This document shows, piece by piece, positions 3,447-25,586 of a stretch of 39,487 bases of DNA; within the stretch, counting starts at the first letter, position 1, and the number at the start of each line of letters is the position of its first letter. The translations under genes and the position numbers were made by a program. The notes beneath the pieces were generated by a model that ran no database searches, was not told the DNA's origin, and worked only from the letters and a program-made list of their open reading frames with translations. Source of the stretch: a virus; the IMG/VR virus record IMGVR_UViG_3300009964_000015. One strand, written 5' to 3'.

Positions 3447-3899
3447 ATGGAAGGGACTTCTGGAGGTAGAAGATTGACGATAAATATCAAGCAACGATTG
3501 AAAGCATTACAGTACATCGATATCAAAGCGAAGTCAAAGCACCAAGAAATTATCAGTTTGAAGTCAGGTATTTTACGAGGGCAGCAGTTTGACAATATGC
3601 CAAAATCGAAAAGCAATACGAACCACTCTGAAGAGTTGAATATTTCGATTATCGTTAAGTCGGATGAATTGTATCGAGAGATTCAATCTTTATATAAAGA
3701 GCGCGATGACCTTGTAAGAGCTATTGAGTCGCTCGATGATCCAGTAGAAAACATTGTCATGCGACTACTCTATATTGATGGTCTTTCGTGGAAACAGGTT
3801 GAAAGAAAGCTGCGGTGCAGTCCTGCGACCATACAGAGAGCGAGAGATAAAGCGATAGCTAAATTAGTTAAAATATTTGATAGTAACGATAGTAAATGA
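3447..3899 (+). CDS. ArpU/RinA-like late transcriptional regulator (sigma-70 region-4-like C terminus)
   Basis: C terminus IVMRLLYIDGLSWKQVERKLRCSPATIQRARDKAIAKL. It is the last gene before the packaging module. Confidence 0.65.
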   Translation: MEGTSGGRRLTINIKQRLKALQYIDIKAKSKHQEIISLKSGILRGQQFDNMPKSKSNTNHSEELNISIIVKSDELYREIQSLYKERDDLVRAIESLDDPVENIVMRLLYIDGLSWKQVERKLRCSPATIQRARDKAIAKLVKIFDSNDSK

Positions 3900-4178: not shown

Positions 4179-4673
4179 ATGGACATTGGGTTAAATCAAA
4201 GACAAAAGATGTTTGCGAGCGAGTATTTGAGGACAGGCAATGTCTATCAATCCGCAATATTTGCCGGTTATAGTGAGGCTTATGCCAGAACAACCGCTAG
4301 TAAATTACTAGAAAATGCAAGCATTAAAACGTTCATACAAACAGAAACCGAAAAGATGCACGATGAGAATATTTTAAGTGCTAAAGAGGCTCTTTCAATT
4401 CTTTCAGACATTGCAAGAGGCAAGCGGCTTGAAGAAGTCTTGATGATGAATCCGGTAACTGGAGAGGTCGATAGAGTTAAGAAGAAAGCGGATAATAACA
4501 CGGTTATTAAAGCAATAGCCGAGATATTGAAACGATATCCGACTGCTAAACAAGCTGAAAAACTTGAACTTGAAATCGAGAAACTCAAATCTCAAATTGG
4601 CATGGATGATGAACACGATGATAAACTTGTTGAATTCGCTAAGGCTTTGAGAGGTGCTTTTAATGACAAGTAA
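4179..4673 (+). CDS. terS: Terminase small subunit
   Basis: N-terminal LNQRQKMFASEYLRTGNVYQSAIFAGYSEAYARTTASKLL is the typical TerS HTH signature. A GTG at 4173 is an alternative start. Confidence 0.8.
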   Translation: MDIGLNQRQKMFASEYLRTGNVYQSAIFAGYSEAYARTTASKLLENASIKTFIQTETEKMHDENILSAKEALSILSDIARGKRLEEVLMMNPVTGEVDRVKKKADNNTVIKAIAEILKRYPTAKQAEKLELEIEKLKSQIGMDDEHDDKLVEFAKALRGAFNDK

Positions 4674-5888: not shown

Positions 5889-7301
5889 ATGTATCAGATT
5901 TTAACTTATCCACGAGATGGATACGATGAAACAGCTTTGAGCAAGGAATTGATCTACAAGCTGATTCGCAAGCATACACAAGAACGCAGTCGCTTGCAGA
6001 AATTGAAGAAATACTACTTGGGTGAGCATGCTATCTTGAATCATACGAGAAGAAATCAGAATGCGCCGAATTTTAAAACGGTAGCAAACCACGCTAAGGA
6101 CATCGCAGACACATCTACTGGCTATTTCATGGGCAATCCTATCAAGTATAATAATACTGCTGAGAGCGACCTTGAGCCTTTGCTTGAGGCTTTTGACGGT
6201 GCTGAAATCGACCAAGTAGACGCTCAGAATGCTTTGAACATGGCTATCTATGGACGTGCTTACGAATACATTTATGCGAAGGAAGGACTGACTGAGCTTG
6301 ATTCGACTAGCGTAGATCCTGAGAATGTATTTCTTGTTTACGATGATAGTATCGAACGCAAGGCCTTGTTTGCAGTCTATTACTACGAAATCAAAGATGA
6401 CACGAAAGATGCGACTAAGTATCAAGCAGAAGTCTTTACTCAGAATCTGCATTATCACATTGTGCTGCGTGATTCGAGCATGGGAACAACCAGGAACGAG
6501 CAAGTAGAACCTCACAACCTCGGGCAAATCCCAATCATCGAATACCGTAACAACCACTTTGCGATTGGTGACTACGAGCAACAAATCAGCTTGATTGATG
6601 CTTATAATTCGTTGATGGGTAACCGAGTCAATGACAAGGAGCAAGCAGTCGAGTCTATTCTTGTTCTGTACGGCGCGCAATTGGCTGATAACCTGGAGGA
6701 TGCTAGAGAAGCAATGAGCATCCTTGCTGAAGAAGGCCTTTTGGAATTGCCAGCAGATGCCAAAGCTGATTTCTTGAAAAATGCTCTGGACGAAAACGCG
6801 ACTGAAATTTTGCGTAAGGCTTTGAAAGAAGACATCTACACATTCAGCCATGTGCCGAATTTGACAGATGAAAACTTCGCAGGCAATAGCTCGGGCGTAG
6901 CCATGGAATTCAAGCTATTGGGCCTTGAAATGATTACTAAGACGAAAGAAGCGAACTACAAGCGAGGTCTTAGACAGCGGATTGCTATCTTCGCTCATTA
7001 CTTAGGCATGCAGCAGATTGCTCTTGAAGCACATTCAATCGTGCCACAGTTTAGCCGTGGATTGCCTAAGAACTTGCTCGAATTGTCACAGATTATCAAT
7101 AATCTTGAAGGTAAGGTCTCACTTCGTCAGCTTATTTCGCTCTTGCCATTCGTTGAAGATCCTGATGCTGAACTTGAAGAACTCGAAGAAGAGAAAGAAA
7201 AGAATAAGGACCGTGTGCCATTCTTTAATCAGGCGAACACGAAGCCAGAGGAAGAGGTAGCAGATGAACAACAAGGACTACTGGACCCAGAGGAAGGCTA
7301 A
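5889..7301 (+). CDS. Portal protein (SPP1 gp6-like)
   Basis: 470 aa, positioned after TerL, with an acidic C-terminal tail. Confidence 0.8.
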   Translation: MYQILTYPRDGYDETALSKELIYKLIRKHTQERSRLQKLKKYYLGEHAILNHTRRNQNAPNFKTVANHAKDIADTSTGYFMGNPIKYNNTAESDLEPLLEAFDGAEIDQVDAQNALNMAIYGRAYEYIYAKEGLTELDSTSVDPENVFLVYDDSIERKALFAVYYYEIKDDTKDATKYQAEVFTQNLHYHIVLRDSSMGTTRNEQVEPHNLGQIPIIEYRNNHFAIGDYEQQISLIDAYNSLMGNRVNDKEQAVESILVLYGAQLADNLEDAREAMSILAEEGLLELPADAKADFLKNALDENATEILRKALKEDIYTFSHVPNLTDENFAGNSSGVAMEFKLLGLEMITKTKEANYKRGLRQRIAIFAHYLGMQQIALEAHSIVPQFSRGLPKNLLELSQIINNLEGKVSLRQLISLLPFVEDPDAELEELEEEKEKNKDRVPFFNQANTKPEEEVADEQQGLLDPEEG

Positions 7302-9129
7302 CCTTATCTATGAGCAAATGGATAAGGCTGAGAGGCAAGCGGACAAGTTCGACGAGATTTACAAGCAATCTAAAGCTTATCTAGACAAGCAAATAAATAA
7401 GGTCTTTGATAAATTTCAACGCGATTATGGTTTGAGCGAACGTGATGCTCGTCATGTTTTGAAGAACATGAAGGACCAGAAGGACCTAAACGAACTTCGC
7501 AAGGTGCTTGAAGCTAGACCGAACGACCCAAATATTCAACGATTGCTTGCTGATTTGGACAGTCCAGCCTATGCTTATCGCATGAAACGACTTGAACGGT
7601 TAAGTGCTGACTTAGATTTGATGCGTGAGTCTATCTATCTTTCTGAGAAGAAAGGCTCAGATGCTTTTTACAGCGACCTGATGAAGGATAGCTATTACAA
7701 GGCTACTTTTGACCTGCAACAGCAGACTGGACTGGCATACGGCTTTTCTAGGCTTCCTGAGAGTGAGATAAAACATCTACAGTCTTTTAGTTGGGTAGGT
7801 GACGGAAGTACTTACTCTATAGATATCTGGAAGAACACAGGGAAACTCGCTTCTAGCATAAAAGATGAACTCCTCATAAGCCTCATGACAGGACGAGGAA
7901 CACGAGAAACTGCACAAGCAATTGCTGAGAGGTTCAGCGTGAGTCAGAATGATGCAAGGCGTTTGGTTCGTACCGAGTCAGCGTTCTTTCATAACCAAAT
8001 GGAACTGCTCAGCTATGAAGATGCTGAAATCACAAAGTACAAATTTGTGGCAGTATTGGACAGGCGCACGTCTCACATCTGCCAAGAACAGGACAACGAG
8101 GTCTATGATACAGACAAGGCTGTTCCTGGTGTGAACTATCCACCTCTACATCCGTGGTGCAGGTCTACGACTATCGCATACGACGAGAACGCAGATTACA
8201 GCAAACTAGAACGTAGAGCGAGAAATCCAGAGACAGGTAAGGTTGAGTATGTGCCTGCTGATATGAGTTATAAAGAGTGGTATTCTAAGTACGTTGACAA
8301 AGACGAAAAAGAACAAAAGAACGCTTTTATGGATTCGTTTTCAAATGGATTGGATTTAAAGCAAAAAACTCTTTCTAATTTTGACCATTACGCTAGAAAG
8401 TGGTATAATGATTACGTAGAAAAGCAATTATCTTTTGAAGATATAGAGTTGGCCAGCAATAAGATTAAAGATGTTTTAGAAAACAGCGAATTATCTATGC
8501 GCTTCAAATCTGAAAACATAGATAAACTAATAGATTCAACTAGAATTTTGAATCAGTTCGAAACCGGAACAAGCGGTGGTACTGTAAACTTGAAGTATCG
8601 TCGCCAAGCAAATGAACAGCTTTTTGGTTTACAAGGGAAAAGATTGAAGAAGCATGACTTTGAAAAGTATGGGTACTTCGGAAATAAAGACCCTTATGAA
8701 GATTTTCTATACAATTCAAAAAGCTGGGGTGGCGTTTCGCAATATGGAGATATAATTGTTCGTTTTTCTAAAGATAAAATGTTATCAAGAACAACGTTCA
8801 CTATAAACAATAGTTTGGGTCCTGCTGTCTACAAGGATTTAGTTGCGGATAACCCTAATTCGCCTCATCTTTTAAGTATTGACAAAAATTATTTACAAGA
8901 TTATGTCGAACTTTTGAAAAATAAAAATGCAAGAACGCCTGAAGAGTTAACAAAAACATTAGGAATCAGATATATTGAGGCTCAAATCCATGGGGACGTT
9001 GGATTGACGGATATCTCCAGTATGTACTTCACTAATAAAATACCAAATAACAATCAAATTAATGCGTTGAAATCATATGGGATTGATGTTTTCGTGAAAG
9101 AGGGTGAAAAATTTGTTCGAGTTGAATAA
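7264..9129 (+). CDS. Head morphogenesis/minor capsid protein (SPP1 gp7 / Mu F domain) fused to an unassigned C-terminal domain of about 275 aa
   Basis: The MuF part ends around YPPLHPWCRSTTIAY. The C-terminal extension begins at about nt 8311 and is more A+T-rich. Confidence 0.8.
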   Translation: MNNKDYWTQRKANLIYEQMDKAERQADKFDEIYKQSKAYLDKQINKVFDKFQRDYGLSERDARHVLKNMKDQKDLNELRKVLEARPNDPNIQRLLADLDSPAYAYRMKRLERLSADLDLMRESIYLSEKKGSDAFYSDLMKDSYYKATFDLQQQTGLAYGFSRLPESEIKHLQSFSWVGDGSTYSIDIWKNTGKLASSIKDELLISLMTGRGTRETAQAIAERFSVSQNDARRLVRTESAFFHNQMELLSYEDAEITKYKFVAVLDRRTSHICQEQDNEVYDTDKAVPGVNYPPLHPWCRSTTIAYDENADYSKLERRARNPETGKVEYVPADMSYKEWYSKYVDKDEKEQKNAFMDSFSNGLDLKQKTLSNFDHYARKWYNDYVEKQLSFEDIELASNKIKDVLENSELSMRFKSENIDKLIDSTRILNQFETGTSGGTVNLKYRRQANEQLFGLQGKRLKKHDFEKYGYFGNKDPYEDFLYNSKSWGGVSQYGDIIVRFSKDKMLSRTTFTINNSLGPAVYKDLVADNPNSPHLLSIDKNYLQDYVELLKNKNARTPEELTKTLGIRYIEAQIHGDVGLTDISSMYFTNKIPNNNQINALKSYGIDVFVKEGEKFVRVE

Positions 9130-9424
9130 AATATTAGGAATAGATGATAGTCGTAACAACATTCTAGTCACACTAACAGACGGTCGGTGTGCTCTTGTAG
9201 ATGTAAATCGACGAGGTTTTGTTGTAGAAATTCTATTAGATTCTTTTTACAAATGGATGAGTTTTTCAGATGATTTCACTGAAGAAGATGTTAGTAACGT
9301 CAAGGCTATTTTAGCAACCCCAGAAGGCATTGGGTATGGTCCGCTTGCTGAAGAGTATGTAATTAATTCAAAAATAAAACGTGACTTTGATGAAATGAAA
9401 AAAGAAATCGGCTATGAATATTAA
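9113..9424 (+). CDS. Hypothetical protein; candidate immunity/partner protein of the MuF C-terminal domain
   Basis: Overlaps the MuF stop. The TTG at 9113 lies 7 nt after AGAGGGTG; the GTG at 9104 from the ORF track is an alternative start. Followed by its own terminator. Confidence 0.55.
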   Translation: MFELNKILGIDDSRNNILVTLTDGRCALVDVNRRGFVVEILLDSFYKWMSFSDDFTEEDVSNVKAILATPEGIGYGPLAEEYVINSKIKRDFDEMKKEIGYEY

Positions 9425-9452
9425 GCACCTAGAGAAATCTAAGTGCTTTTTT
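9423..9452 (+). terminator. Intrinsic terminator
   Basis: Stem AAGCACcTAG/CTAaGTGCTT, 6-nt loop, then T6. Confidence 0.6.
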
Positions 9453-9474
9453 CGTGTTCAGAAAGGAGAGTCTG

Positions 9475-9642
9475 ATGAATAAGTACAAAAAGTTGGATAT
9501 GATGATTGGCAAATACGAGAAAGGACAGTTAGAGTTTGAACCTAAATGTCCTATTGATTTGTTAAAAGGTCAGCGTTCGACTATGTGGAATTATTTAAAA
9601 ATTCTAGAACAACGTGCAAAAATTGAGGAAATTAAACTATAA
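9475..9642 (+). CDS. Small hypothetical protein (55 aa)
   Basis: The ATG at 9475 follows AAAGGAGAG; the track start at 9454 is GTG. Followed by a strong terminator. Confidence 0.55.
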   Translation: MNKYKKLDMMIGKYEKGQLEFEPKCPIDLLKGQRSTMWNYLKILEQRAKIEEIKL

Positions 9643-9647
9643 AACCT

Positions 9648-9675
9648 AACCGTATGGAATCCCGTACGGTTTTTA
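9648..9675 (+). terminator. Intrinsic terminator
   Basis: 10-bp stem AACCGTATGG/CCGTACGGTT (one G.T), loop AATC, then a T5 run. Confidence 0.7.
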
Positions 9676-9676
9676 T

Positions 9677-9769
9677 GCGCACGAAGGGGAGATAGTTCGA
9701 TCCTATCTCACGGGTTAATCAAGTTCGAGTCTTGAAATCTGGCGGGTGGTTCGAGTCCACCGGTGCGCG
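9677..9769 (+). ncRNA. tRNA-like structured element with three T-loop hairpins inside an acceptor-type helix; not a canonical tRNA
   Basis: Closing helix GCGCAC/GTGCGC. Hairpins: GAGATAG-TTCGATC-CTATCTC (9689-9709), TCAAG-TTCGAGT-CTTGA (9719-9735) and GGTGG-TTCGAGT-CCACC (9745-9761). The last hairpin abuts the 3' acceptor strand as a T arm does in a real tRNA. Confidence 0.55.
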
Positions 9770-9847
9770 TTATTGTCCAAGCATTGAAGACTCTAAAAGC
9801 TATGGAATTATACAGTCGGGGACGACTTTAAAAATAGGAGGTTCGTA

Positions 9848-10366
9848 ATGAACGAAGAAACACAAACAGTCGAAACGGTTGAAGCTCAAGGGGTGCCTGC
9901 AGAACCTACTACCGAAAACCAACCGCAAGACGAGAAGAAGTACACAGATGCAGAAGTCGATGCCATCATCGACAAGAAATTTGCTAAGTGGAAATCAGAG
10001 CAAGAAGCCAAGGAAAACGAAGCTAAGAAGCTTGCTAAGATGAACGCTGATGAGAAGAAAGATTATCAGCTGAAACAACTTGAGCAAGAACTAGCTGACC
10101 GTGAGAAGGCTATTGCTCGTAAGGAATTGACCGCAGAGGCTAGAACGATGCTAAGTGAACGTGGCTTACCAGTCGAATTAGTAGCAGTGGTTGATTTGTC
10201 AGACGCTGAAGCGGTGACTGAATCAGTCGCAAGCATTCAGAAAACGTGGGAGGATGCAGTCCAAAAAGGTGTATCTGACCGCATGAAGGGTGGCGCACCT
10301 ATCAAGACTGCGCCAATAAATCAGCAGGAAGTCACCGAAAAATGGAGACAGGACTTTTTGCGCTAG
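9848..10366 (+). CDS. Capsid scaffolding protein (DUF4355-like)
   Basis: Acidic and coiled-coil, with KYTDAEVDAIIDKKFAKWKSEQEAKENEAKK. Lies immediately upstream of the capsid gene. Confidence 0.75.
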   Translation: MNEETQTVETVEAQGVPAEPTTENQPQDEKKYTDAEVDAIIDKKFAKWKSEQEAKENEAKKLAKMNADEKKDYQLKQLEQELADREKAIARKELTAEARTMLSERGLPVELVAVVDLSDAEAVTESVASIQKTWEDAVQKGVSDRMKGGAPIKTAPINQQEVTEKWRQDFLR

Positions 10367-10392: not shown

Positions 10393-11409
10393 ATGGCATT
10401 TGAAGCATTAAACACAGCAGAATCACGCAAGAAACACCTTGGAATCATTGAGGATGTTCTTGCGGTAAATTCATACGCAACACCACTCTTGACACCAACT
10501 GAAGCAGTGACTCTAAACGGTCGCTCATTCACAGTCGCAACAGGTAACACAACCGAGCTAAAGGACTACAAACGTAACAAAGACAATGAATTTGACCACG
10601 TAGAAGTTGAAGAAAAGGTCTACACTCTTGAAGAAGAAAAATACTGGGGCCGTTTCGTTGACCAATTGGATGAACGTGATTCAAACGGTCAAGTAAACAT
10701 TGAGTATGTGATTGCTCGTCAGGCTGCTGAAGTAGTCGCTCCATATCTTGACAAACTTCGTTTCGATGCAGCACTCGGAAACGTAAGTGACAATGTGGTC
10801 ATGGGTAAAACGGCAGGAGCCAACAACGCTTACAATGCAGTTCTTGACGTTTCTGAGAAATTGGATGAACTTGGAATCACTAAAGAACGCTTGCTCTTTG
10901 TCACACCAAGTTTCTACAAGGCTATCAAATCTGAAATCGTGCGCTTGCCACAAGGAGATGCAGACAAGAAGGTTCTTGGAAAAGGATATGTTGGTGAACT
11001 GGATGACTACACAGTCTACAAAGTACCTTCAAAATTCTTGCCAAATGTGAACGCCCTTGCAGCTGCACCTGGCGTAGTGACATCACCAATTCAAATCGAC
11101 AACACTAAGTACAACGACAACGTACCTGGTCGATTTGGTGAATTGGTAGAACAATTGCTCTACACTGGAGCTTATGTGCTTGAACACTTCCAAAAATACA
11201 TCATCACAATTGCAGATTCTAAACCTGCTGCTAAGAAGTCAGCTCAAGGCAAGACAGTGAACCGTGCTAAAGCTTGGAAGACTGGAACAGCCTACAAAGA
11301 AGGCGACACAGTAACGCATGAAGACAAGGTCTATGTCGCTATCAAAGACATCACTAGCTCGACCAACGCACCAGACTCTGACTCAGCTAACTGGAAAATC
11401 AAGAAATAA
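10393..11409 (+). CDS. Major capsid protein with a C-terminal CBM5/12-like (chitin-binding type 3) domain
   Basis: 338 aa, positioned after the scaffold gene. C terminus AWKTGTAYKEGDTVTHEDKVYVAIKD...ANW. Confidence 0.75.
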   Translation: MAFEALNTAESRKKHLGIIEDVLAVNSYATPLLTPTEAVTLNGRSFTVATGNTTELKDYKRNKDNEFDHVEVEEKVYTLEEEKYWGRFVDQLDERDSNGQVNIEYVIARQAAEVVAPYLDKLRFDAALGNVSDNVVMGKTAGANNAYNAVLDVSEKLDELGITKERLLFVTPSFYKAIKSEIVRLPQGDADKKVLGKGYVGELDDYTVYKVPSKFLPNVNALAAAPGVVTSPIQIDNTKYNDNVPGRFGELVEQLLYTGAYVLEHFQKYIITIADSKPAAKKSAQGKTVNRAKAWKTGTAYKEGDTVTHEDKVYVAIKDITSSTNAPDSDSANWKIKK

Positions 11410-24338: not shown

Positions 24339-25466
24339 TTAAAAAATACTATCCAATTTCTTTACAAGTTTATCTTCCATATCTTGCGTTGTATGAGAAT
24401 AAATTTCGAGTGTCATTTTGGCATTTGCGTGCCCTACACGATCCATAATTGACTTAATAGGAAGACCAGCTTCTGCTAAAAACGAAATGTGAGAATGTCG
24501 AAACACATGGCTAGATAGATTTTTTTCTATTCCTACCATTGCGCCATATTTTTTTATAATTTGAATGAAAGATGCTAAAGTTATTGGACTATTCCAGATT
24601 TCAAAACAAAAAATATAATCATCTTTCGTTAATGGTTGAAAGCGTTCAGTAAGCCGTATTATTTGCCTTTTAATGGCTTCAAGCGCTGCTTCAGAGACCT
24701 GGATTGTTCTGATTGATTTTCTTGTCTTCGGGATTGTTTTTATCTTATGAATTGAATCAAAATTTCCTGCGATTTCAATTTTTTTATTTTGGAAATCAAT
24801 ATTTTTTAATTGAAGGCCTGTAAGTTCGCCATAGCGCATTCCAGTAAGAGCTAGAACAAGAACCATGTCAGCGTATTTCTCATTGAATTTTTTACTGTTC
24901 AATGAATCAACAAGTTGTTTAATCTCGTCCATTGTGAGGAATTTTTTGCGCTTTTGCTCAATACCTTCCACAGTCTCCAAAGGCTTTGGAATACTTGTAA
25001 AATTCACCTCGTTCTTATCGATATAAGAATATTTCAGAGCATACTCAAAGATAGTCTTTAACCTAATTCGGACTCTATTTGCCGTATGATAGGTTTTAGC
25101 TTCAAGAATTTTATCAAGCTTTTTTTGAACGAAACGTCTATCGATATTTATCAAAAGAATATCATCGTTTATTTTTTCTTTTATAACATTATCAATAAAT
25201 GAGTAAGAGTGCTTTGTTGATTCCTTAACTGTCTTTTCCCATTGTTGATAGAAAAGGTTGTAAATTTCCCCAAAGGTTATATTTTTTTCATTTTTAGTGT
25301 TTAGCTTTTTTTGTATCTTTTCTTGCAAGAGCAATGCCGCTTGATTTCTTGCCTGGGGTGTTTTTTTCTCCATCGTGACTGATACTTTTTTTAATTTCTC
25401 GGTGTACGGATCTTTGTATCGCTCAAAAAATTTATATTTTCCGTTTGGCAATTCTTCCATCCACAT
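24339..25466 (-). CDS. int: Tyrosine-type integrase
   Basis: C terminus HVFRHSHISFLAEAGLPIKSIMDRVGHANAKMTLEIYSH. Start MWMEELPNGKY at 25466 follows GTGAGG. The longer track ORF reaching 25562 is a spurious extension. Confidence 0.9.
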   Translation of the reverse strand: MWMEELPNGKYKFFERYKDPYTEKLKKVSVTMEKKTPQARNQAALLLQEKIQKKLNTKNEKNITFGEIYNLFYQQWEKTVKESTKHSYSFIDNVIKEKINDDILLINIDRRFVQKKLDKILEAKTYHTANRVRIRLKTIFEYALKYSYIDKNEVNFTSIPKPLETVEGIEQKRKKFLTMDEIKQLVDSLNSKKFNEKYADMVLVLALTGMRYGELTGLQLKNIDFQNKKIEIAGNFDSIHKIKTIPKTRKSIRTIQVSEAALEAIKRQIIRLTERFQPLTKDDYIFCFEIWNSPITLASFIQIIKKYGAMVGIEKNLSSHVFRHSHISFLAEAGLPIKSIMDRVGHANAKMTLEIYSHTTQDMEDKLVKKLDSIF

Positions 25467-25541
25467 TGATTTTAACCTCACTTTTTGATAAAATGAGTAT
25501 AGTAAAGAGGGCCATTTAATGCCTTTTACTATACATAATCT

Positions 25542-25586
25542 CCTCACGCTCAGAGTCGCCAAACATTGAGAGCGTGAGGCTTTTTT
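25542..25586 (+). terminator. Hairpin with a T-run only on the + strand, between the TM2 gene and int
   Basis: 10-bp stem CCTCACGCTC/GAGCGTGAGG with an 18-nt loop, followed by CTTTTTT on the + strand. Confidence 0.5.

Follow-up and report, generated by a model that had tools for sequence, protein, structure and literature searches.

A predicted SopF/DUF3626-family ADP-ribosyltransferase domain on the MuF head protein of a temperate phage, exchanged as a cassette with a small downstream gene

Results

The MuF gene and the exchanged cassette

The stretch of viral DNA analyzed here (hereafter, the window; 39,487 nucleotides, IMG/VR virus record IMGVR_UViG_3300009964_000015) comes from a streptococcal phage that is temperate, as judged by its integrase gene (24339-25562, minus strand) and by genes for an HTH repressor and an ImmA-like peptidase. 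In the head-morphogenesis module, after the portal gene (5889-7301) and before the genes for scaffold and capsid, an open reading frame (ORF) on the plus strand (7264-9129) encodes a 621-residue protein that consists of a MuF/SPP1 gp7-type head protein core (residues 1-345; 7264-8298) and a 276-residue extension starting at residue 346 (8299-9129, including the stop codon). The MuF/gp7 domain itself spans residues 198 to 304 or 305 (Pfam PF04233, 5.9e-16; TIGR01641, 1.4e-23); the segment YPPLHPWCRSTTIAY corresponds to residues 292-306, and KDEKEQKNAF, at residues 346-355 (8299-8328), opens the extension. MuF/gp7 proteins are portal-associated, DNA-binding minor capsid proteins, and co-injection of the cargo that they carry has been proposed (PMC10083569; PMC9503650; PMC5512222).

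In phages K13 and MissE1, the MuF core shares about 85% identity with that in the window up to approximately residue 345, beyond which the proteins diverge; at the DNA level, the homology ends at 8297-8305, to resume at about 9421. The original prediction, made by eye, held that the extension was extra cargo on a normal MuF core and that the boundary lay at about residue 345. The core is indeed matched by the MuF profiles, the homology to K13 and MissE1 stops at the boundary, and, given the position of the DNA break together with the divergence of the proteins, the boundary was placed correctly to within two or three codons. The MuF C-terminus is variable, so that closely similar cores carry different tails. 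In K13, it matches the small alarmone synthetase SaSAS (8vx3, E = 4e-11), and the slot at the same position comprises the alarmone synthetase, a small ORF of its own, and an HD hydrolase; in MissE1, the same core is followed by a 104-residue tail without a Pfam domain. The RelA/SpoT-type assignment that had been entertained for the window holds for the sister phage K13 at the same position.

The MuF core has a G+C content of 0.442, and the block of approximately 1.3 kb at 8299-9642, the flanks of which are at 44%, has one of 0.333; the portal and scaffold genes are at 0.437-0.466, and the window as a whole is at 0.411. Only 4% of equally long segments are as A+T-rich, all of them at about 23-27 kb, within the lysis/lysogeny region. 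The four G+C counts originally made by hand (28/60, 19/60, 18/60, and 28/60) are exact, and the A+T-rich stretch that they outlined is real and, as the homology breakpoints indicate, marks an exchanged cassette. Among phages with the SopF-like domain described below, the shared, exchanged segment is 8347-9468, and the view that the low-G+C block is a horizontally exchanged cassette is supported.

Inside the exchanged segment lies ORF 9113-9424 (plus strand), which encodes a 103-residue protein, a candidate cognate inhibitor or immunity protein. It starts with TTG, shares its first 17 nt with the 3' end of the MuF gene, and is preceded, 8 nt upstream, by AAAGAGGG. A homolog with 64-65% identity is located directly downstream in all seven other loci that contain a close homolog of the extension domain; the two therefore occur together in 8/8 loci, with MuF cores that are only 25-36% identical. 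The domain and ORF 9113-9424 accordingly move as one cassette, and this co-transfer bears out the link between them that had been proposed. Searches with the 103-residue protein yielded no match in Pfam, PHROGs, NCBIfam, or PADLOC, and its 41-sequence profile retrieved nothing from the PDB. Furthermore, it shows no detectable similarity to TP901-1 ORF34 or Tierra gp10, which follow TP901-1 ORF33 and Tierra gp9, two remote members of the domain family, nor any similarity to the ORFs beside the stand-alone domain gene of a Christensenellales phage. The partner gene is also found alone, as the last gene of satellite-like islands of roughly 10 kb in mitis-group streptococci.

The next gene (9454-9642, plus strand) encodes a 62-residue protein of the Sequestin family (PF21825, 5.2e-15) that is 82% identical to K13 gp19; it is a neighbor in the same low-G+C slot, outside the exchanged cassette. 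Members of this family have been shown experimentally to sequester 3'cADPR and to block type I Thoeris (bioRxiv 10.1101/2025.07.12.664507). A terminator scan of 8900-9900 called nothing; folding nevertheless places a strong hairpin, with a U-run behind it, at 9648-9676. The intergenic structured element at 9675-9770 matches no tRNA and no Rfam family.

Family and fold of the C-terminal domain

The extension starts with about 60 residues of helices, which are followed by an alpha/beta catalytic core. Several lines of sequence comparison lead to the same family. The Pfam profile DUF3626 (PF12294) matches the domain in the window with 22.3 bits (E = 7.7e-5), below the Pfam cutoff of 27; it also matches 53 of the 62 aligned relatives (best E = 1.6e-15), and the cutoff is exceeded by TP901-1 ORF33 (27.6 bits), Tierra gp9 (35.7), and giant family members (up to 208). 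The extension further matches phrog_8314 (3e-10). When the single sequence was searched against the PDB, the top match was SopF (7dn8/7dn9), aligned on YIEAQIHGDV, and a profile of the 62-sequence family retrieved SopF (7dn8) at E = 2.2e-5; this profile was built on a domain-only alignment, an earlier alignment that retained MuF columns having given SopF at E = 0.04 along with spurious polymerase matches. SopF, the protein in these PDB entries, is an ADP-ribosyltransferase with an I-Y-E triad (PMC10333799) and is itself a DUF3626 protein (PMC6682159).

Structure prediction leads to the same conclusion. The AlphaFold2 (AF2) model of the extension has a pLDDT of 96.4 and a pTM of 0.93, and a second, shallower model reaches a pTM of 0.70; both independent models rank SopF first. 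The original prediction, which left the fold unassigned, had proposed a Foldseek search with such a model. Against the PDB, this search places SopF first (E = 3e-6, probability 1.0, TM 0.50/0.48, 17% identity) and assigns the fold as that of an ADP-ribosyltransferase. The only other match at E <= 0.001 is another ADP-ribosyltransferase, DarT (E = 6e-5, TM about 0.45 to the target and about 0.37 to the query, 10-13% identity); CteC, OspC3/CopC, Tpt1, and LT/cholera toxin are weaker matches, and a viral structure library adds baculovirus ORF28-type proteins and IIV-6 422L. The extension can be placed, as a divergent member, in the DUF3626/SopF family of ADP-ribosyltransferases; it is predicted to use NAD to modify proteins and is related to SopF, a Salmonella effector. 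The expectation of an enzyme-like effector domain was, then, well founded. The absence of an R-S-E triad, noted at the time, also stands, and it explains itself, the SopF-type triad being the atypical I-Y-E, which does not reveal an R-S-E pattern to the eye; setting the ADP-ribosyltransferase option aside on this ground was a mistake, considering that the domain has precisely this fold in its SopF-type form.

Two other assignments were weighed and rejected. A RelA/SpoT pyrophosphokinase (RSH/toxSAS) finds no profile or fold match for the extension in Pfam, NCBIfam, PDB sequence searches, or Foldseek; the K13 MuF C-terminus, with its match to SaSAS, served as the positive control. The reading of RYIEAQIH as a HEPN motif fails as well: it lies on a beta-strand of an alpha/beta fold, its Arg is conserved in less than 60% of the family, compared with 98% for its His, and no HEPN match was obtained in Pfam, NCBIfam, the PDB sequence search, or Foldseek.

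Predicted active site

All the motifs named originally are where they were said to be in ORF 7264-9129 (KYRRQ, residues 444-448; GDIIVRF, 495-501; NSPHLL, 532-537; YIEAQIHG, 570-577), NSPHLL falling in a non-conserved stretch. The strand YIEAQIHG (8971-8994) aligns with YIEAHIHGDV of SopF, with Glu572 (8977-8979) as the predicted catalytic residue. It corresponds to SopF E325, the catalytic Glu on the fifth core strand; the identity of the motif Glu as E325 follows from the E325A mutagenesis primer, and this residue binds the N-ribose of NAD+ (PMC11937434). Y570 and E572 do not vary among the 62 to 80 family members compared, and Q574, H576, and G577 are conserved at 98%. Residues 572, 574, and 576, which had been singled out for mutagenesis, are E, Q, and H, and E572, invariant and aligned with E325, is the right one to mutate.

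Y494-G495 in the QYGD motif (8743-8748) aligns, by profile, with the SopF segment GGASAYGKSF, so that Y494 (98% conserved, next to the invariant G495) is the predicted nicotinamide-stacking Tyr; the Tyr of the SopF segment is the nicotinamide-binding residue Y240 (PMC11937434). Y469-G470-Y471 (EKYGYF, 8668-8676), on a core strand, includes the invariant Y469 and G470 and a Y471 conserved at 92%. Actinobacterial members read RPIYGYL where SopF has RPIAYAL around Y224, and by this sequence comparison, the Y469/Y471 region is the probable counterpart of SopF Y224, in an approximate register. Finally, R413 (SMRFKS, 8500-8502; 84-90% conserved) is placed by the AF2 model on the first core strand, beside the position of the SopF Ile: LSMRF aligns with LTINF of SopF, and at the putative first position of the triad, Ile in SopF, the phage family has Met-Arg.

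Distribution and carriers of the family

Among 80 proteins with the SopF-like domain at the C-terminus, 63 have a MuF-type N-terminus. Other family members are stand-alone proteins or parts of giant polyvalent proteins, which carry tandem copies of the domain, in cyanophages, mycobacteriophages, Bacillus phage SP-15, and giant viruses. The count of 7,210 family representatives is a maximum, as about 95 columns of the query profile belonged to MuF; the SopF-like domain was confirmed in 159/159 proteins examined (150 listed matches plus other homologs). In the literature searched, the ADP-ribosyltransferase families explicitly named on MuF proteins are of the Alt/VIP2 and N4/HYD2 types (PMC9503650; PMC5512222), and we found no link of DUF3626/SopF to MuF. 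The TP901-1 MuF protein is classed as 'Cter-Tox' in the supplement of Jamet et al., its entry there leaving the domain unnamed. The ADP-ribosyltransferase that Iyer et al. described in polyvalent proteins has an H-Y-D site and belongs to the HYD2 clade (PMC5512222); given the Y/E residues and the DUF3626 matches of the family described here, it is probably not the same family.

Discussion

We consider it reasonably probable that residues 346-621 are an NAD+-dependent ADP-ribosyltransferase of the SopF/DUF3626 family that is delivered by the virion via MuF, with the product of ORF 9113-9424 as the cognate partner. Under this scenario, the MuF core would serve as the carrier, a few copies of the fusion being placed, as judged by analogy with SPP1 gp7, in the capsid at the portal; the enzyme would leave the virion together with the DNA, enter the newly infected streptococcus, and modify one or more targets there, contributing to host takeover or counter-defense. 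Packaging and ejection of the fusion are suggested here by analogy with other MuF proteins only. The 103-residue protein, the translation of which is apparently coupled to that of the fusion and the gene of which is exchanged together with the domain in one cassette, would bind the domain as its cognate partner, most likely inhibiting the enzyme so that it stays silent in the cell that produces it. The setting is favorable to this scenario in that the same slot holds an anti-Thoeris sponge gene. Several points weigh against it: the DUF3626 score of the domain in the window is under the Pfam cutoff; the resemblance to SopF is limited to the core, with a TM of about 0.5 and 17% identity; the putative first triad position differs from that of SopF; and the partner matches no recognizable fold or family and is not conserved in the distant relatives TP901-1 and Tierra.

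The phage domain and SopF have in common the catalytic strand Y-x-E-A-x-I-H-G-D, the Y-G nicotinamide motif, and the region of the helix plus the first strand; they differ in that SopF is a stand-alone Salmonella effector secreted by a type III system that acts in animal cells, whereas the phage domain is attached to a capsid protein. Because bacteria, to our knowledge, lack ARF GTPases, the regulation of the phage domain must, we infer, differ from that of SopF. The latter is activated by, and requires, a eukaryotic ARF GTPase and modifies Gln124 of ATP6V0C (PMC10333799).

For the delivery itself, phage T4 Alt is an apt analogy, the proposed logic being the same: an ADP-ribosyltransferase made late, packaged, and ejected. 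Alt belongs to the R-S-E (Alt/VIP2) clade and is not fused to MuF, we know of no partner inhibitor for it, and beyond the superfamily fold, no homology to the domain in the window was seen. The head-packaged Alt is ejected with the DNA and modifies host proteins at the start of infection (PMC5512222).

The same enzyme could conceivably act instead as one of the MuF polymorphic toxins defined by Jamet et al., released by the lysogen population upon induction or lysis against competing streptococci or, as Bxa does, against host cells, with ORF 9113-9424 providing kin immunity. Much of the locus is compatible with this possibility, which we nevertheless regard as unlikely. An integrase and an ImmA/HTH pair identify the phage as temperate, and its conserved MuF N-terminus, together with exchangeable C-terminal domains and a small ORF downstream, fits the definition of these toxins (Jamet et al. 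2017; PMC5576092), which include Bxa and the (p)ppApp synthetase Apk2 with Tis1/Aph1; the K13 cassette at the same position is Apk2-like. In Bxa, an ADP-ribosyltransferase with antibacterial activity is fused to MuF and comes with two immunity proteins (PMC11699363), and the stand-alone copies of the small ORF elsewhere are reminiscent of orphan immunity genes. The partner in the window is unrelated to the known immunity families. However, there is no known route for the export or entry of a free MuF fusion, the stand-alone and giant polyvalent members of the family fit a role in infection better than one in interbacterial killing, and the neighboring gene is an anti-defense sponge.

Alternatively, the domain could be a DarT-like enzyme that, attached to a DNA-binding MuF protein, modifies host or phage DNA or RNA rather than proteins. 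DarT, the second-best structural match, is the DNA ADP-ribosyltransferase toxin of DarTG, the cognate partner of which, DarG, is a macrodomain hydrolase; the parallel with the cassette is that of a structural neighbor held by a cognate partner. In addition, the baculovirus matches are of the ORF28 type, the ORF28 family of arthropod viruses having been described as DarT-like (PMC9503650), and SPP1 gp7 binds DNA (PMC10083569). Even so, we deem a nucleic-acid target quite improbable: of the characterized relatives, SopF is the closest in sequence as well as in structure, and its substrate is a glutamine of a protein. Moreover, the vicinity contains no gene for a DarG-like macrodomain antidote, and the 103-residue partner is too small for DarG and unrelated to it.

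That the extension might have no catalytic role, serving as a structural or decoration module or as the scaffold left by an inactivated enzyme, would accord with a DUF3626 score under the Pfam threshold and with an activity that is predicted from a model. This appears very improbable, given that all the equivalents of the NAD+-binding and catalytic residues of SopF vary little or not at all among 62 to 80 diverse homologs, that the domain also occurs alone and in non-capsid contexts, and that phages with an 85%-identical MuF core do without it. The readings of the domain as a pyrophosphokinase of the RelA/SpoT type (toxSAS) and as a minimal HEPN RNase have virtually no chance of being correct, for, notwithstanding a loose order of motifs seen by eye and the existence of MuF-fused alarmone synthetases (PMC10083569), one of them in the sister phage K13, both are refuted at the level of the fold, and the motifs map onto elements of the ADP-ribosyltransferase.

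Returning to the virion-delivered SopF-like enzyme and its partner, the orphan copies of the partner gene invite a further, tentative proposal, which is possible and, on balance, rather doubtful: the partner might be a dedicated inhibitor of the injected ADP-ribosyltransferase that was captured by satellites to disarm the effector of incoming or helper phages. If so, such a gene would protect the cell or tilt the conflict between phage and satellite, and an antidote to an injected phage enzyme would constitute a new anti-phage or anti-helper function. As a corollary, SopF would descend from a family with its main home in phage-head cargo. The orphan copies in satellites suggest an experiment on how satellites and hosts neutralize injected phage enzymes.

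Taken together, these observations give an identity and a specific predicted catalytic residue, E572, to a domain that is unannotated on many phage 'minor capsid' proteins, including that of TP901-1, and they indicate that the members of the SopF family, of which one Salmonella effector acting on animal cells had been known, are for the most part cargo of phage heads. They also provide a clean case of natural cassette exchange, in which one MuF core carries an ADP-ribosyltransferase with its partner, an alarmone synthetase with its hydrolase, or nothing. Prophages of mitis-group streptococci and pneumococci are common in human isolates, and hence, the target of this predicted enzyme could matter for the fitness of the lysogens.

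Fold and family of the MuF extension

The MuF head protein, 621 aa encoded by ORF 7264-9129 (+), matches MuF models at aa 198-304 (Phage_Mu_F, PF04233, 5.9e-16; TIGR01641, phageSPP1_gp7, 1.4e-23 in profile searches), and its core is followed by an extension, aa 346-621. Alone, the extension matches DUF3626 (PF12294) in Pfam at 7.7e-5 and 22.3 bits, below the cutoff of 27, and, in PHROGs, phrog_8314, a family of unknown function. Its top PDB relative in sequence searches is 7dn8/7dn9, with YIEAQIHGDV placed exactly opposite YIEAHIHGDV. These structures are Salmonella SopF in complex with ARF1, in 7DN9 additionally with NAD; SopF, which belongs to DUF3626 (PMC6682159), is an ADP-ribosyltransferase whose triad, I-Y-E, is atypical and whose target residue is Gln124 of ATP6V0C (PMC10333799).

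The link to SopF, initially weak, survived attempts to break it. When 62 diverse members are aligned over the domain alone, the profile match to SopF in the PDB improves to E 2.2e-5; 53 of the 62 match DUF3626 individually (best 1.6e-15), and Lactococcus phage TP901-1 ORF33 (27.6 bits), mycobacteriophage Tierra gp9 (35.7 bits) and several giant family proteins (up to 208 bits, in tandem copies) exceed the Pfam cutoff. Exhaustive profile search recovered 7,210 cluster representatives at E <= 1e-3 and 2,280 at E <= 1e-10, counts that are upper bounds because the search profile included some MuF columns; the domain was confirmed in all 159 family proteins examined among the matches listed.

The AlphaFold2 model built from the 62-sequence alignment (mean pLDDT 96.4, pTM 0.93) retrieves SopF first in a Foldseek search of the PDB (E 3e-6, probability 1.0, TM 0.50/0.48), with DarT as the sole other match at E <= 0.001 and CteC, CopC, Tpt1 and heat-labile/cholera toxin, all ADP-ribosyltransferase folds, at weaker E-values; the ranking is unchanged for a shallower model (pTM 0.70). 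The structure search called for by the original prediction assigned the fold and matched neither of the folds that it had entertained, RelA/SpoT and HEPN. Structural neighbours from a library of viral proteins comprise minor capsid proteins of phages, Nodularia phage proteins labelled 'DUF3626', giant-virus proteins, and baculovirus ORF28-type proteins together with IIV-6 422L; the ORF28 family has been termed DarT-like (PMC9503650).

Predicted active site

In SopF, E325 contacts the N-ribose of NAD+, Y224 and Y240 contact the nicotinamide, and mutation of any of the three largely abolishes activity; the printed mutagenesis primers place E325 in YIEAHIHG, Y240 in GGASAYGKSF and Y224 in RPIAYAL (PMC11937434). 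Profile alignment pairs E572 of the extension with E325 and Y494 (in QYGD) with Y240, and, judging from sequence, the EKYGYF strand (Y469-G470-Y471) appears to correspond, at the level of the region, to that around Y224. Across sets of 62 and 80 homologues, E433, R446, Y469, G495, T511, S517, Y570 and E572 are invariant, Q431, S437, G439, F454, G470, Y494, D516, Q574, H576 and G577 are conserved in at least 90%, and R413 in about 84-90%. Every motif quoted in the original prediction lies where it was placed; KYRRQ, GDIIVRF and YIEAQIHG are genuinely conserved but had been assigned to the wrong fold, and NSPHLL falls within a variable insert. The R-x6-H spacing behind the HEPN reading is fortuitous: its Arg varies among homologues, and the model has a beta-strand here.

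Carrier proteins

Among 80 proteins with the domain at the C-terminus, 45 contain PF04233 and 18 contain PF06152 (Phage_min_cap2), the model used for MuF2 by Jamet et al., so that at least 63 of the 80 are MuF-type fusions. Other family members are stand-alone proteins or parts of giant multidomain proteins. In five such giants (P0024, P0048, P0038, P0121 and P0083; 1,000-2,100 aa), DUF3626 is repeated several times in tandem, with up to 5 matched stretches and 208 bits, and some of the five additionally contain MuF or RNase_T exonuclease; such settings of the domain resemble polyvalent proteins. In mycobacteriophage Tierra (L005), a 61-aa gene (4254-4439) directly 3' of a VG15/DUF3626 fusion has a product that matches ribosome modulation factor (PF04957, 2.5e-11).

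MuF-fused ADP-ribosyltransferases are already known: Alt/VIP2 and N4/HYD2 types have been named on MuF (PMC9503650, PMC5512222), Bxa is a further case (PMC11699363), and database annotators already label some relatives of the extension 'DUF3626' or 'ADP-ribosyltransferase'. In the literature searched, we found neither DUF3626 nor SopF linked to phage head proteins, and a 2022 survey of viral NAD/ADP-ribose systems (PMC9503650) mentions neither.

A polymorphic slot flanked by the MuF core and the scaffold gene

An integrase, an ImmA/HTH pair and a GH25 lysin bearing choline-binding repeats are encoded in the window, which represents a complete temperate phage whose host is a choline-containing streptococcus; related phages infect S. 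pneumoniae, S. mitis and S. oralis. The MuF core has a G+C of 0.44 and the scaffold and capsid genes 0.44-0.47, whereas 8299-9642, between them, has 0.33; this low-G+C block holds the extension, ORF 9113-9424 (+; 103 aa counted from a TTG start) and ORF 9454-9642. The four 60-nt hand counts that had pointed to this shift are exact on recount. The sole other strongly A+T-rich region, at ~23-27 kb (G+C 0.32-0.35), begins at the lysin gene end and extends across the genes for the integrase, a TM2-domain protein, an ImmA-like peptidase and an HTH repressor. The ORF in the major capsid position, 10393-11409 (+), bears a C-terminal carbohydrate-binding module (CBM_5_12, aa 294-335, 5e-9), an unusual appendage on a capsid protein.

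Within the phage lineage of the window, the content of the slot varies. In the sister phage K13 (L002, 2555-4759), the MuF core is ~85% identical at the amino acid level, the C-terminal domain matches the small alarmone synthetase 8vx3 (SaSAS; 4e-11), and a 69-aa ORF and an HD_4 hydrolase follow; this cassette, which occupies the position of that in the window, is organised like the Apk2-Tis1-Aph1 toxin-immunity system (PMC10083569). MissE1 has the same core with a 104-residue tail, in which Pfam detects no domain, and different small ORFs downstream. The SopF-like domain occupies the slot in the window and in MissE2-type phages.

ORF 9454-9642 (+), inside the low-G+C block, encodes a 62-aa Sequestin-family protein (PF21825, 5e-15; 82% identical to K13 gp19) common to most compared phages of this slot; for this family, sequestration of 3'cADPR and inhibition of type I Thoeris have been demonstrated experimentally (bioRxiv 10.1101/2025.07.12.664507). 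A ~95-nt structured element, 9675-9770 (+; folding z = -2.9), lies upstream of the scaffold gene, beyond the hairpin (9648-9671, with a U-run) that follows the Sequestin gene. It is closed by GCGCAC/GTGCGC, and the loops of its three hairpins, GTTCGA, are T-loop-like; the element is not a tRNA, has no match in Rfam, and among the compared loci is common only to the window and MissE1. A ~75-nt junction at 9421-9495 (GCAC...GTGC, then a T-run) is 91-97% identical in K13 and MissE1 despite the differing cargo on its left, and may mark where recombination bounds the exchangeable slot on the right.

Transfer of the cassette and its possible function

DNA homology with same-core phages stops at 8297-8305 and restarts at ~9421, and the segment common with MissE2-type phages (8347-9468, 72-73%) spans the domain, ORF 9113-9424 and little besides. 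All 8 loci that encode a close relative of the domain (60-70% identity) have the small ORF (64-65% identity) immediately 3' of it, overlapping the MuF stop codon, even though they differ in capsid module and their MuF cores share only 25-36% identity; neither is present in the phages whose core is 85% identical to that of the window. Joint movement of this kind is the hallmark of cassettes that pair a toxin with its immunity protein or an enzyme with its inhibitor. The 103-aa protein itself has no known match in Pfam, PHROGs, NCBIfam, PADLOC or the PDB.

With the fold, the conserved catalytic residues, the linkage of the cassette and the prevalence of MuF fusions established, the best-supported reading, which we consider probable, is that of a virion-carried, ejected NAD+-dependent ADP-ribosyltransferase with an inhibitory partner. 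Analogy with SPP1 gp7, T4 Alt, Bxa and Apk2 is the guide to activity, packaging, target and inhibition: the enzyme would be carried in the capsid on the MuF protein, leave with the DNA and modify a host target early in infection, and the 103-aa protein would bind it and hold it inactive in the producing cell. SopF depends on ARF, a dependence that is impossible in bacteria; regulation of the phage domain must therefore differ, and the 103-aa partner is the obvious candidate regulator. The main rival keeps the same enzyme but casts it as a toxin that the lysogen directs against other bacteria or against the host, which seems rather unlikely. A nucleic-acid target, as in DarT, which ranks behind SopF in the structural comparison, appears less likely still.

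An orphan partner in satellite-like islands

Close homologues number 88 for the small ORF versus 11 for the domain, and the most widespread small-ORF variants (P0174, P0178, P0195 and P0182) lie outside phages. In 12 loci (L007-L010, L015-L020, L024 and L025), the small ORF is the terminal gene of an integrated element and the domain is absent, as judged by a domain HMM scan in 10 and by gene tables, with no MuF or DUF3626 gene, in 2. A complete island spans ~9.7 kb (e.g. L024, 699-10330) and encodes an integrase, divergent HTH regulators, a pRha antirepressor, a replication module (PriCT/D5_N-DUF5906 primase or Rep_org_N/DnaB_2), a DUF1492 regulator and, last, the small ORF; virion genes are absent from the gene content. 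This organisation is, in our view, that of phage-inducible chromosomal islands. Insertion in streptococci is at no fewer than two chromosomal sites, one adjoining pflB, another between rpsD and a bacteriocin ABC-transporter gene. The window also encodes, upstream of the packaging genes (3447-3899, +), a DUF1492/sigma-70-region-4-like protein, of the same DUF1492 family as the island gene that precedes the orphan partner ORF.

With 72-75% identity, the island copies are closer to the small ORF of the window than are the copies in other phages, and by contig counts island-type variants outnumber phage-type variants several-fold, a ratio that is rough because context was checked for five variants only. 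This satellite-borne orphan partner is the part of the system that most deserves follow-up.
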